A stretch of DNA of 64,000 bases from Candidatus Iainarchaeum sp. (GTDB lineage: Archaea; Iainarchaeota; Iainarchaeia; Iainarchaeales; VGJJ01): positions 135,891 through 199,890 of the forward strand of contig JAUYHT010000002.1 of assembly GCA_030688545.1 (NCBI GenBank), read 5' to 3'. Shown piece after piece: positions 2,914-62,853 of the stretch; position 1 is the first letter of the stretch, and each line of letters begins with the position of its first letter. The notes under the pieces are model-generated. The model made no database searches. It saw only the letters and a list, made by a program, of their open reading frames with translations, and had not been told where the DNA came from. A program made the translations under genes and the position numbers.

Positions 2914-3657
2914 TCACCCCAACGCGAGCAACACTACCATGATCCCCACTCCCAGAAGGAAAAATCCCAATTGGACCAGGGAAACATTCCATTTCACTTC
3001 TTTATGCAATTCAGGAATCAAATCGCTCCCCGCGATATAGAGAAAGTTTCCTGCGGCAAAGGGCACCAGCCAAACGGATAATCCTTCCGCGATTGCTCCT
3101 AATCCAAAAACCAGAAAGACCCCAAACAAGGACGTGAGAGCGGTGAAGAGATTTATCTTCAATGCCTCATTAACCTTGAATCCCCCGTGGAGAAGAATGC
3201 CGAAATCCCCGATCTCCTGGGGAATCTCATGCAGGGCCACCGCGATGGTCGTGGCGATGCCAGCGGGAATACTAATCAAATACGCCGCGGCAATGATTAT
3301 GCCATCAAGGAAATTGTGGAAAGCATCCCCCACTAAATTGACCCACACAAACGGATGCTTATGATCTTCATGGGGGTAGTGGCAATGGCGCCAATGAATC
3401 ACTTTTTCGATGATGAACATGACCACGATCCCCGCAAGGACGGTCAATGACACCTCAATCCCAAACCCTAATTCTTCCACACTCTCCGGGAGCAGGTGAA
3501 TAAATACATCCCCAAATAAGGCGCCGGCCGCAAATGCCACGAGAAAAACCAGATGGCTCCGCAGCCGCTTTTGATTCAGGGACAACGTAAAAATTCCAAT
3601 GAGGGAAATCAAACTCACCGCAATAACAGAAAGAAAAGCATATTCCAATGCCGCCAT
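2914..3657 (-). CDS. ZIP family metal (Zn/Fe) transporter.
   Basis: It carries the HEIPQEIGDFGILL signature of the ZIP/ZupT family and multiple transmembrane helices. Confidence 0.85.
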   Translation of the reverse strand: MAALEYAFLSVIAVSLISLIGIFTLSLNQKRLRSHLVFLVAFAAGALFGDVFIHLLPESVEELGFGIEVSLTVLAGIVVMFIIEKVIHWRHCHYPHEDHKHPFVWVNLVGDAFHNFLDGIIIAAAYLISIPAGIATTIAVALHEIPQEIGDFGILLHGGFKVNEALKINLFTALTSLFGVFLVFGLGAIAEGLSVWLVPFAAGNFLYIAGSDLIPELHKEVKWNVSLVQLGFFLLGVGIMVVLLALG

Positions 3658-3797
3658 AAATGCGCCTCCAACCCAGCGATAATCCGTAATACACCTTTAT
3701 AATAGGAATGAGCCCCCGATGATATAGCAGGCTGCATTGGCGTTTTCTTCCAGGACACCCCTAAGCGGCTTGCTAGGGAAGAATGGTGTTGGCCAGA

Positions 3798-3871
3798 TTT
3801 TTTGATCAACCTTTTTTCCCAAAAAAAAGGACGGAAGAGGTTTTTGATCAACCTTTTTCCCAAAAAGGTTG
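3798..3871. repeat. Two tandem AT-rich palindromic elements: TTTTTGATCAAC followed by a CTTTTT-CCC-AAAAAGG hairpin.
   Basis: Copy 1 is at 3798-3830. Copy 2 is at 3841-3871 and contains the perfect palindrome CAACCTTTTT-CCC-AAAAAGGTTG. The same family recurs at 16110-16270 and 34187-34210. Confidence 0.5.
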
Positions 3872-3950
3872 CGGGGTTGGCAGAGTGGTCGGCCAGTTTC
3901 GACTGGCCACTGCGAAAAAGGGCACCCATTTTAACAAACGGGTGCCCAGT
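3871..3950 (+). other. tRNA-Ser 5'-end duplicate (20 nt identical to the downstream tRNA) followed by two stable hairpins. Candidate pseudo-tRNA, split-tRNA 5' half, or other small RNA.
   Basis: GCGGGGTTGGCAGAGTGGTC at 3871-3890 is identical to 3973-3992. It is followed by the hairpin GGCCAGT-TTCG-ACTGGCC, then CTGC (which can pair with GCAG to give a D-stem), and then the hairpin GGGCACCC-(12 nt)-GGGTGCCC. There is no T-arm and no 3' acceptor strand. Confidence 0.4.
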
Positions 3951-3972
3951 CCATCCAAAGAAAATAAAGGAA

Positions 3973-4056
3973 GCGGGGTTGGCAGAGTGGTCTATAGCGG
4001 CAGCCTGCTAAGCTGTTCCGGGAAACCGGGCGAGGGTTCGAATCCCTCACCCCGCG
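3973..4056 (+). tRNA. tRNA-Ser (anticodon GCU), class II with a long variable arm.
   Basis: Acceptor stem GCGGGGT/ACCCCGC, discriminator G. Anticodon stem GCAGC/GCUGU with loop CUGCUAA. Variable-arm hairpin CCGG-GAAA-CCGG. T-arm GAGGG-TTCGAAT-CCCTC. The D-arm pairing is poor (GCA versus GCG) and there is one extra nucleotide in the D region, which could mean an unusual structure or a mis-parse. Confidence 0.65.
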
Positions 4057-4154
4057 TCACTATTTTATTTGAGTCGAGTTCTTTAGTGAATGAGTTTTCC
4101 TCACTCCTCCACCATCGAGTTTCTTCGTTACCCTTTTTTTGAAAGAATAATTGG

Positions 4155-4748
4155 CTAATCGACAACCAGAGGAAAGAGCTCCCTTTCTTTTTGAGAAATT
4201 CGTTGAGCAAGATCCTCAAACAATTCTTCCACCAAGGGATGCTGATTAATCTTTCCTCTTTTGGATTCTTTAACCATTTCAAATGTTATCCCGCGCTTCT
4301 TCCAGGTGCGGCCATCATCAAGGAAATTGTTAATCGTTGGGAGAATTTTATCCAAAGCATGGACGAAACGGGATTCCTTATCCAGTTTGGATTCATAGGC
4401 CGCGATCGTCGCATGCAAATCCCCAAACTCGGGGAATTCCGATTGTAATCGAATCGCGGCCAGGCGCTCATTCTCTTTCTTCATTGATTTATCTTTGGCG
4501 AACGTGTCGATGTCACCCGCATACACTTCGACGAGATCATGGACTAAGGCATACCGAATAACCTTATCGAGATCTAAATCCAAATGGTGGGATTGAACTA
4601 AGTACCATGCCACGAGAGTCAATTGGTACTGGTGCTCACAATCGTTCTCCAATTGGTCCTCACCTTTAACATATATGGCCCGCTTCACTTGCCGGAGCTG
4701 ATGGGTCATGCTCACAAAGCGCAGGAGGGGATCCAAATGGGGCATCAC
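4155..4748 (-). CDS. HD-domain phosphohydrolase (YfbR-like 5'-deoxynucleotidase family).
   Basis: It carries the H...HDLVEVYAGD metal-binding motif of the HD superfamily. Confidence 0.7.
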   Translation of the reverse strand: MMPHLDPLLRFVSMTHQLRQVKRAIYVKGEDQLENDCEHQYQLTLVAWYLVQSHHLDLDLDKVIRYALVHDLVEVYAGDIDTFAKDKSMKKENERLAAIRLQSEFPEFGDLHATIAAYESKLDKESRFVHALDKILPTINNFLDDGRTWKKRGITFEMVKESKRGKINQHPLVEELFEDLAQRISQKERELFPLVVD

Positions 4749-7901: not shown

Positions 7902-8065
7902 CATTCTATGTTTTAGGGAATTGAACCCCATTTTGCAGGGTGGACAAAAATCAAGAAAGCCTGGGGGATTCAGAACCAACCTTTTAGGAAAAGGTTGGCG
8001 AAAAGGCGTCTGGGGTACTGCAGTGGCAGTACCCCTAAGAGCGGGATCGAGGAACAAGACCTCGA

Positions 8066-8149
8066 TGCACGGGAGAGGATTCGAACCTCTGAAGGCACTA
8101 AGCCACCAGATCTTGAGTCTGGCCCCTTTGACCGCTTGGGTACCCGTGC
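8066..8149 (-). tRNA. tRNA-Leu (anticodon CAA).
   Basis: The reverse complement GCACGGGTACCCAAGCGGTCAAAGGGGCCAGACTCAAGATCTGGTGGCTTAGTGCCTTCAGAGGTTCGAATCCTCTCCCGTGC+A has perfect acceptor, anticodon and T stems, anticodon loop CUCAAGA, a long variable arm and discriminator A. Confidence 0.85.
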
Positions 8150-8384
8150 AACTGTATTTTCATGATGGGTCCATGGGGGTTACATACCCTTGGTACCCTT
8201 CACCATTCAAGATCGGGGAAGGGTTAAAAAGAATGGTCAGGGGAGGCCCAGGGCATTCCGAGCCAGGAGGAGGGCAAGGGCAAATACGAGGATGGTTCCT
8301 AGGGCGAGGTGGATGGTTTGTTGGGGGGTTATCCAGGGACGCATCCAGGGCATGCGAATGGGAAACGAAAGGGGATTATAATCC

Positions 8385-16109: not shown

Positions 16110-16270
16110 TTTTTGATCAACTTTTTTTCCAAAAAAAAAGGCCCGTTTTTTGATCGAACTTATTATTAAAAAGTTCGTTTGATGAAACTTTTTTTCTCAA
16201 GAGTAGGGTTTTTGATCAAACTTTTTCTCAAAAAGTTTGATGATGAAGCTTTTTCTAAAAAAGTTTGAGG
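16110..16270. repeat. Cluster of four to five AT-rich palindromic hairpin elements (GATCAA/GATGAA followed by CTTTTT-N3-AAAAAG) in the scpA-VIT intergenic region.
   Basis: Examples are CAACTTTTTTT-CC-AAAAAAAAAG at 16118-16141, CGAACTT-ATTATTAAA-AAGTTCG at 16153-16177, and TCAAACTTTTT-CTC-AAAAAGTTTGA at 16216-16240, followed by a further degenerate copy. T5-T9 tracts are present on both strands, so these may act as bidirectional oligo-T terminators. Confidence 0.5.
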
Positions 16271-27102: not shown

Positions 27103-27173
27103 TCGACCGACGAGGAGAAAAATAGGATAACAAGGGAAATATTGATTTGGTTTAACACTTCCATTAAATTATT

Positions 27174-27449
27174 CGGCCGCCGGGGATTCAAAGAATCCCC
27201 TCGTCCATCGGGGCGGCCGATCGAAAGCGGCCCTGGTTGAAAAGTGGACATAGGAATGAAACAAATTGTTACGGCCGCTGGGAGGTCAACGACCTCCCAC
27301 GTCCCTCGGTGCGGCCGGACGAAAACGGCCCTCAAAATCGTGCAGCCGGAGGAAAGCGGAAATTGTCGTCGTTCGGATTAAGTGTCGTTCCGGCCGCCGG
27401 GAGGGTGTAACCCTCCCTCGTCCATCGGGGCGGCCGGACGAAAACGGCC
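27174..27449. repeat. Three tandem copies of a 59-nt GC-rich double-hairpin repeat (at 27174-27232, 27272-27330 and 27391-27449), separated by unique 39-60-nt spacers.
   Basis: Each unit has the form CGGCCGC(C/T)GGG-[hairpin A]-(C/A)CGTCC(A/C)TCGG(G/T)GCGGCCG-[loop]-CGGCC. Hairpin A differs between copies but stays paired: GGGGATTC/GAATCCCC, GGGAGGTC/GACCTCCC and GGGAGGGT/ACCCTCCC. A second 3' hairpin is GCCG-(ATCGAAAG or GACGAAAA)-CGGC. The array lies between the convergent nucS and a membrane-protein gene. Confidence 0.65.
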
Positions 27450-58948: not shown

Positions 58949-59010
58949 CGGCCGCCGGGGGATTCGAAGAATCCCCCTCGTCCATCGGGGCGCACGATCG
59001 AAATCGTGCG
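58949..59010. repeat. Fourth copy of the GC-rich double-hairpin repeat family.
   Basis: CGGCCGCCGGGGGATTCGAAGAATCCCCCTCGTCCATCGGGGCG plus the 3' hairpin CGCACGAT-CGAA-ATCGTGCG. Hairpin A is GGGGGATTC/GAATCCCCC. The 3' hairpin has a different sequence from copies 1-3 but the same position and pairing. It lies immediately 3' of the 59012-59206 gene. Confidence 0.55.
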
Positions 59011-62592: not shown

Positions 62593-62853
62593 GTCTTCAC
62601 GAGGCGCGCCCGATTAAAAAAGGCTCCGGCCCGATCCGTTGGGCCGCTTTCGATCGGTCGCTCCGAACCCGGATTATTTACGATACCCCTGGAGAAATAT
62701 TTGAATCCCCCTCACGAACTCGAGTAAAGAGATTCTTTTGGATTCCAATTCTCCTTGAGGTCTCAGGTGGGAATCTGAACTCATCCAAATACCTTTATCG
62801 GCACAGATCGATTATCCAGTGAATATTAAAAGGCACATCCGTCTTTTTTCTTC

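Follow-up and report, generated by a model that had tools for sequence, protein, structure and literature searches.

A two-hairpin repeat family and the probable origin of a tRNA-Ser 5' fragment upstream of the intact gene in a Candidatus Iainarchaeum genome

Why should an archaeal genome carry the first 20 nucleotides of a tRNA-Ser(GCU) gene a second time, a short distance upstream of the intact gene? The question is raised by a 64,000-nt stretch of Candidatus Iainarchaeum sp. (assembly GCA_030688545.1, contig JAUYHT010000002.1, positions 135,891 to 199,890 of the forward strand; hereafter the window, in whose coordinates features are given), where the 20-mer GCGGGGTTGGCAGAGTGGTC stands as an isolated fragment at 3871-3890 and again as the beginning of the gene at 3973-3992. 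Analysis of this locus and its relatives suggests, with a probability of roughly 0.6, that a two-hairpin repeat of about 82 nt landed in tRNA-Ser(GCU) and duplicated the gene's first 20 nt, the upstream 20-mer being the stranded original 5' end.

The 20-mer occurs exactly twice in the window, even with up to three mismatches allowed, and shuffles predict no occurrence by chance; the duplication had been described in an earlier reading of this DNA made from the sequence alone (the sequence-only reading), and an exact search bears it out. The boundary of the repeat is abrupt, with 20/20 identity and none beyond position 20, and a weak 5' extension brings it to 27 nt at 93% identity (3864-3890 versus 3966-3992; five of the seven extra nucleotides match, AAAGG). 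The downstream copy heads a gene that ARAGORN calls with a cloverleaf and Rfam scores at 55.3 bits, followed by a T-rich stretch, TATTTTATTT (4061-4070). The fragment runs from the acceptor 5' strand through the D-stem 5' strand into the D-loop, most of which it includes; it lacks a T-arm and a 3' acceptor strand, as had been noted, and the tRNA-Ser 3' end has no copy in the window besides the intact gene. Between the two 20-mers lie 82 nt (3891-3972), and the 102-nt stretch of fragment and spacer has a folding energy of -40.0 kcal/mol (z = -4.4 against shuffles).

What occupies the spacer is best understood from other genomes. The two hairpins that had been noticed there are present as described (hairpin A at 3891-3908, hairpin B at 3920-3947), and hairpin B is longer than had been noted, at 12 bp with one mismatch. 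Hairpin A is of the type N6-TTTCGR-N6', which is scarce; the window has two examples where 0.29 would be expected. Four are found within 8 kb of CP064981, a complete Ca. Iainarchaeum genome (L006; related loci are designated by L and a number), where a short linker (..CGAnnA..) leads from each of them to a second hairpin, which is GC-rich. The hairpin A homologues in L006, GTCCAATTTCGATTGGAC and GGCCTGTTTCGGCAGGCC, differ through compensatory changes. A first covariance model was built from 11 copies of this module, and a second, R2, was trained on eight copies from L005, L006 and L010 only, with no window sequence. The top match of R2 is window 3891-3948 (40.2 bits, E = 3.5e-8, with 131 kb of other sequence searched). 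With five weaker matches (Table 1) the window holds six copies in total, next to the eight in L005, L006 and L010, and three of the six form a tandem array at 27181-27449. In an alignment of 17 members, 86% of cells are paired and 12 of the 16 pairs are altered on both sides; the covariation score of 0.51 (shuffles 0.17, slid structures no more than 0.13) supports both helices, in an alignment that had been fitted to the model's structure.

Because of the R2 match and the covarying family, the two hairpins of the window are read as one copy of a dispersed repeat and not as relics of a D-arm and an anticodon arm. The sequence-only reading had taken a CTGC after hairpin A to complete a D-stem and the second hairpin to resemble an anticodon arm with anticodon UUU; the CTGC is indeed found, at 3910-3913 after one A, but it belongs to the module linker, and hairpin B is the second stem of the repeat module. 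The inserted DNA belongs to a previously undescribed family of two-hairpin repeats that is found repeatedly at tRNA gene ends in these archaea. At the gathering thresholds of Rfam 15 only the two tRNAs reach the cut-off and no family is assigned to the module, and permissive Rfam scans of 3780-3975 and 27120-27340 yield only matches far below threshold. A pattern scan had also flagged hairpin B as an intrinsic terminator on the minus strand; archaeal termination does not need hairpins, the host is archaeal, and the structure is explained as a module hairpin.

The positions of the copies indicate what kind of site the module occupies. Some begin at or just past a stop codon: the copy at 27449, with which the tandem array starts, overlaps the stop of a 165-aa open reading frame (ORF), and L006:3020 likewise overlaps a stop. 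The copy at 59009 lies after a 64-aa histone-like ORF, and one further window copy is in a divergent intergenic region. Four copies begin 0-2 nt past the discriminator base of a tRNA, which is tRNA-Leu in L005, L006 and L007 and tRNA-Ser in L006. Two inverted copies, L006:4727-4779 (minus strand) and L006:4867-4920 (plus strand), bracket tRNA-Leu(CAA), with both hairpin A's facing the tRNA. In the window, tRNA-Leu(CAA) (8064-8150, minus strand) is itself followed at once by two hairpins (about 8010-8063), TCGAGG-TCTTGTT-CCTCGA and GGGGTACTGC-CAC-TGCAGTACCCC, which have a module-like layout and a different first loop. Decayed duplicates of the tRNA-Leu 3' end, sought beyond the downstream modules, were rejected as non-significant against shuffles (p 0.16 in the window, 0.04 in L006).

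One of the L006 copies provides the closest parallel to the window locus. There, the last 20 nt of tRNA-Ser (nt 64-83, GTTCGAATCCCTCACCCCGC) are followed immediately by hairpin A, as part of 84 nt of new DNA in all; the right repeat, GTTTGTATCCCTCGCCCCGC, is a 17/20 copy of nt 64-83, and the native T-rich flank lies beyond it. The close relative L005 has the same flanks with the insertion absent and represents the empty site for L006. Significant flanking repeats (p about 0.001) are found at only two of the 15 module copies tested, namely the window and L006 copies in tRNA-Ser, and both repeats are 20 nt long. In both events hairpin A adjoins the left repeat, with 0 nt between them, and the distance from the start of hairpin A to the right repeat is 82 or 84 nt; the two genomes have the same tRNA gene affected at opposite ends, with one geometry. 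It is mainly because of this match with L006 that we read the window locus as a module insertion with a duplication of about 20 nt, rather than as a decayed local duplication.

Related genomes also bear on which of the two 20-mers is the original. About 20 related loci were collected by 20-mer scans of a genome collection and of metagenomes (12 loci) and by contig look-ups anchored on the neighbouring gene for a ZIP metal transporter. A comparison with relatives had been suggested by the sequence-only reading as a way of recognizing a decayed duplication: most relatives have a single, uninterrupted tRNA-Ser(GCU) (L003, L005, L007, L014, L015, L016 and L023-L028), and among the loci collected two, L002 and L022, share with the window the presence of a 5' fragment. 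In the window, an AT-rich palindrome, CAACCTTTTTCCCAAAAAGGTTG (3849-3871), abuts the fragment as had been reported, the first G of the fragment being common to both. The composite TTTTGATCAAACTTTTC[TC]CAAAAGTTT (TTTTGATCAA plus palindrome) touches the first G of the intact tRNA-Ser in L016 and L028; in the window it touches the fragment instead. Because the same composite abuts the intact tRNA in these relatives, the fragment is taken to be the original 5' end in its native context, and 3891-3992 to be the addition.

According to the insertion reading, 3891-3972 would have entered after nucleotide 20 of tRNA-Ser(GCU), in the D-loop, with duplication of the first 20 nt of the gene during the insertion, and the downstream copy would now head the working gene. 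The inserted DNA would consist of one module copy plus a short tail; CAGTCCATC (3947-3955) is also present in the module copy near 59009. The upstream 20-mer, behind the native palindromic region and severed from the gene, would be a non-coding relic, presumably without function. We infer the direction of the event from sequence comparison. The proposal of the sequence-only reading that the fragment is a pseudo-tRNA left by an old insertion is thereby retained in its essentials: relatives (L014, L015, L016 and L028) have an uninterrupted gene in the same upstream context, but what is seen between the repeats is a member of a repeat family of about 82 nt and not a decayed element bearing an integrase.

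The insertion may also have supplied a promoter. The promoter word TTTTAA (CTTTTAAA) is about 14-fold enriched upstream of ORFs (51 ORFs of the window), usually 27-31 nt before the ATG, a spacing that suggests mostly leaderless mRNAs. TTTTAA is found at 3929-3934, in the AT-rich centre of hairpin B and 44 nt before the intact tRNA, and in L002 CTTTTAAG is equally far from the tRNA. This candidate TATA box probably drives the intact tRNA-Ser; transcription is predicted, from the TATA spacing of the ORFs, to start at about 3956-3960, giving a leader of 13-17 nt that would be removed by RNase P. The L022 spacer has no TTTTAA; the word is present instead 26 nt upstream of the L022 fragment, which may be the 5' end of a 72-nt leader.

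Table 1. Features of the tRNA-Ser(GCU) locus and copies of the two-hairpin module in the window
Feature	Position	Strand	Basis or remark
Conserved block CCTTTATAATAGGAATGA...TATAGCAGGCTGCATTGG, with TATA-like box inside	3694-3740	plus	Alignment with L002; not part of the putative insertion
Two AT-rich repeat units (TTTTTGATCAACCTTTTT..CCCAAAAA..)	3799-3870		Second unit forms the palindrome abutting the fragment
Fragment, tRNA-Ser(GCU) nt 1-20, probably orphaned; left direct repeat	3871-3890	plus	Exact 20/20 repeat; homologous fragments in L002 and L022
Hairpin A, 7-bp stem GGCCAGT-TTCG-ACTGGCC, loop motif TTTCGR	3891-3908	plus	Covariance-model matches
Module linker ACTGCGAAAAA, family consensus ..CGAnnA..	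3909-3919	plus	Alignments; C and G of CGA invariant among copies
Hairpin B, GGGCACCC...GGGTGCCC, 12 bp with one mismatch, TAAC loop	3920-3947	plus	Fold and covariance model
Tail of the putative inserted element and predicted short tRNA leader	3948-3972	plus	Start site predicted from TATA spacing
Intact tRNA-Ser(GCU); first 20 nt are the right direct repeat	3973-4056	plus	ARAGORN, Rfam
Module copy	27181-27232	minus	R2 26.8 bits
Module copy	27279-27330	minus	R2 22.5 bits
Module copy	27401-27449	minus	R2 18.5 bits
Module copy	58957-59009	minus	R2 30.1 bits
Module copy	62642-62682	plus	R2 19.9 bits

Several observations weigh against the insertion reading. The module lacks terminal inverted repeats and an associated transposase or integrase of any known kind, and we know of no described element family that makes target duplications of 20 bp. 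The flanks of most copies are free of repeats, and the family may have a function at gene ends instead of being mobile. No independent assembly spans the locus; the other assemblies of the window organism, L017 and L018, end near 3705. The spacers of L002 and L022 lack hairpin A and have in common the junction GGCARAG/CAGTCC. Position 5 of each fragment is the base of its own tRNA, G in the window and L002 and A in L022; were the three fragments the product of one old event, their upkeep would need gene conversion or selection, which does not sit well with a pure relic.

L002 is a syntenic orthologue (67% identity for ZIP, 64% for PheS) whose fragment matches at 17/20 with copies 69 nt apart, and the L022 fragment matches at 15/15 with copies 72 nt apart. 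The L002 duplication is reproduced exactly in two independent Logan assemblies, which excludes an assembly artefact as its source. The fragments are near-identical although the surrounding intergenic DNA is randomised at about 65% protein identity. The spacers of L002 and L022 are weakly similar (p about 0.04), and this likeness together with the common junction suggests common descent of the two. A variant of the tRNA variable arm is common to the window, L002 and L022, and neighbour-joining trees of ZIP and of the PheS N-terminus are star-like and do not resolve the three fragment-bearing genomes as a clade. Either independent, fairly recent insertions took place in each lineage, or one old insertion was kept alike by gene conversion or selection.

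Four other explanations of the locus have to be set against insertion of the module. Direct repeats of a tRNA end around foreign DNA are the classic footprint of integration, and the locus might be a virus or plasmid remnant in which the 20-mers are the attL and attR cores and the 82 nt are two arms left after loss of the interior and the integrase. A 5'-end case is documented in Caldiarchaeum subterraneum, where a 1.8-kb insert with a recombinase gene separates a 27-nt 5' fragment of tRNA-Thr(GGU) from the intact gene downstream (PMC3293823, Sugahara et al. 2012). As in the window, the inserted element separates the 5' fragment from the intact gene, the upstream copy keeps its native 5' flank, and relatives or other strains have the gene uninterrupted; the window insert, in contrast, measures 82 nt, has no ORF and is a dispersed hairpin module, and the window fragment, unlike that of Caldiarchaeum, has homologues in genomes that differ at the genus level or beyond. 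An element targeting the 5' end needs a promoter for the rebuilt gene, and the arm beside that gene does hold the promoter-like TTTTAA. However, neither an integrase nor any ORF lies between the repeats (the sequence-only reading was correct in finding no integrase, with 82 nt between the 20-mers and a ZIP transporter and an HD hydrolase as flanks), the whole spacer is one copy of a module that also occupies sites away from tRNAs, and spacers of 84 nt in L006 and 82 nt here are improbable products of two independent large deletions. Viral contigs were scanned twice, for the 20-mer and for a junction of the L002/L022 type, and gave only chance matches in coding sequence and a phage tRNA-Ser(UGA), none of which puts the 20-mer in a plausible attP setting; we regard a remnant of this kind as unlikely. 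A local tandem duplication of about -82 to +20 by slippage or unequal exchange, with later divergence of the upstream copies and no mobile DNA, would be the simplest route to a partial 5' copy directly upstream of the gene, and would fit the 5/7 continuation of the repeat upstream (AAAGG) and the TATA-like element about 45 nt before the tRNA, which matches the geometry of L014 and L015 (T-run at about -47). Local alignment of the spacer, on both strands, with the upstream flank and with the tRNA finds no significant similarity in the window, L002 or L022, as is consistent with insertion; moreover, the window spacer matches a repeat family defined from other genomes, and tandem duplication is impossible for L006 compared with L005, since the empty site does not contain the 84 nt of new sequence. 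The sharing of GGCCAG (window) or CAGCAG (L022) at the starts of the would-be units was tried as a sign of tandem duplication and is within chance. Tandem duplication is accordingly an improbable source of the fragment, more so than a viral or plasmid remnant.

The persistence of the fragment invites a further explanation, that it belongs to a selected leader or small RNA which, transcribed from the native promoter, pairs with the leader or the 3' acceptor of the tRNA and influences the processing or expression of tRNA-Ser. The fragment has been kept in three genomes at about 65% protein identity with spacers that are nearly unalignable, and at position 5 it has the base of the tRNA in the same genome (A in L022, G in the window and in L002); nucleotides 11-19 of the L002 and L022 fragments pair with DNA immediately ahead of the tRNA, and one of these pairs shows a compensatory change of A-T to G-C; the leaders of all three genomes fold at z = -3.2 to -4.4; and the TTTTAA upstream of the L022 fragment would make the fragment the 5' end of the transcript. 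But only three sequences are compared, the pairing partner has a different position in the window, the tracking of position 5 has a probability of about 3-4% by coincidence and is explained equally by independent recent insertions or by gene conversion, the window fragment is without a consensus promoter and has T5-T8 runs upstream, and protein trees do not clearly group the three genomes, so that a recurrent origin is possible. A selected leader is doubtful on this evidence, ranking just behind a viral or plasmid remnant and ahead of tandem duplication. The sequence-only reading had also offered a gene for a tRNA-derived small RNA as an explanation, which is conceivable on the present data. 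Far less probable is the interpretation, raised by the sequence-only reading, of the fragment as the 5' half of a split tRNA, or else as exon 1 of an intron-containing or permuted tRNA, joined by the splicing endonuclease. The host belongs to DPANN, where the first split tRNAs were discovered, the fragment retains its native upstream sequence, and tRNA-Cys with the same 5' 20-mer shows gain or loss of an intron (L001 and L011 versus L008). Against this, an intact gene of the same anticodon lies 82 nt away; a search for a complementary 3' half found none in the 64-kb window, which is a part of the genome; ARAGORN, allowed introns of up to 200 nt at a relaxed threshold, returns the intact gene alone; and the fragment is followed by a generic repeat module and not by a GC-rich pairing leader, the hairpin sequences having no second or complementary copy in the window. 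In a bulge-helix-bulge motif the two splice sites lie in 3-nt bulges on either side of a 4-bp helix. A splice that gives the correct tRNA has to cut both copies of the repeat at the same position, so that the 4 nt ahead of one cut are identical to those ahead of the other and could pair with them only if self-complementary; the 20-mer has no such 4-mer, and the motif is impossible here. In having a lone 5' segment that keeps an upstream region of its own, in a DPANN host, the window locus does recall the split tRNAs of Nanoarchaeum equitans and Caldivirga maquilingensis; unlike them, it has an intact gene and no 3' half, GC-rich complementary joiner or bulge-helix-bulge.

A more general proposal can be made tentatively, and at well below even odds: that the module is a miniature mobile element of DPANN archaea (Iainarchaeia), inserting into tRNA genes in a fixed orientation with a target duplication of about 20 bp, contributing some 82-84 nt of new DNA and possibly its own promoter, or alternatively or additionally that it is a tRNA-linked small RNA released by tRNase Z, with the fragment as a working part of the leader. 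In being short, structured, multi-copy, mostly intergenic, often placed right after stop codons and sometimes tandem, with stems that covary and loops that are conserved, the module resembles the bacterial REP/BIME and the archaeal MITE/PATE elements. It differs from them in the absence of terminal inverted repeats and of a RAYT/TnpA gene in the window (a Y1 transposase gene is seen in L016 only), and in the start of several copies 0-2 nt past a tRNA discriminator base; REP and IS200/IS605-type insertion produces no target duplication, whereas two module copies have 20-nt flanking repeats. Small RNAs released by tRNase Z, such as the C/D box RNAs of dicistronic tRNA-C/D box transcripts, offer another likeness, since in L005, L006 and L007 the module starts 0-2 nt past the tRNA 3' end, where tRNase Z would cut. 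The module, however, has no C/D or H/ACA boxes and no Rfam match, and in the window it follows a 20-nt fragment that is unable to fold as a tRNase Z substrate.

The origin of interrupted, split and fragmented tRNA genes in archaea is an old question, and the usual model invokes integrating viruses and plasmids. At the window locus and its L006 counterpart, what interrupts the tRNA gene is a very small structured repeat, accompanied by a duplication of about 20 nt, and no recombinase remains. A mobile module would provide a simple and testable way of turning an intact tRNA gene into a fragment plus a gene, one that leaves no remnant of an integrase-bearing virus or plasmid, and would show how an insertion can replace a tRNA promoter. 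For annotation, the locus is a warning that such tRNA fragments in DPANN genomes may be by-products of insertion and not halves of split tRNAs.

The locus is bracketed by the gene for the ZIP metal transporter (2914-3657, minus strand) and that for an archaeal-type phenylalanyl-tRNA synthetase (PheRS) alpha subunit, and an HD hydrolase gene adjoins the tRNA. A nikR-like gene lies between ZIP and tRNA-Ser in L013, L014 and L024-L028; it is absent from the window, L002, L015, L016, L022 and L023. The conserved block between ZIP and the repeats accompanies tRNA-Ser in at least eight related genomes, including L014, L015, L022, L025, L027 and L028, and nikR separates it from the ZIP gene in L014 and L024-L028. 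The block contains an exact reverse complement (3725-3735) of tRNA-Ser nt 27-37, that is, of the anticodon stem 5' strand plus loop, an 11-mer with p of about 0.001 against shuffles; the block might serve as a palindromic site for a protein (GCAGnCTGC) or as part of a leader that pairs with the anticodon arm. The HD_3-domain hydrolase beside the tRNA (4155-4748, minus strand) is identical to a protein annotated in a 'Candidatus Diapherotrites archaeon' MAG, on a contig of 418,565 bp, and has its nearest homologues outside its own genome in Patescibacteria, at 54% identity, a similarity that suggests gene transfer between two small-celled groups.

The AT-rich palindromic repeats (TTTTTGATCAAC[CT]TTTTT..AAAAAG..) are found in the window at 3799-3870, at 16110-16270 in four to five tandem copies, and at 7978-7996, just downstream of tRNA-Leu. 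The assemblies L017 and L018 stop some 50 nt ahead of the start of ZIP, at the edge of the repeat-rich DNA that precedes tRNA-Ser and that short-read assemblers evidently find difficult. The same palindromic composite abuts the 5' end of tRNA-Cys in L001, L008 and L011. These near-identical loci of another DPANN lineage (L001:7371-7509 and L011:334-472 versus L008:1892-1962) encode the tRNA-Cys(GCA) that has the 5' 20-mer in common with tRNA-Ser, and are polymorphic for the presence of a 68-nt canonical 37/38 intron, which is made up of an AT-rich palindrome and a C(UUCG)G hairpin.

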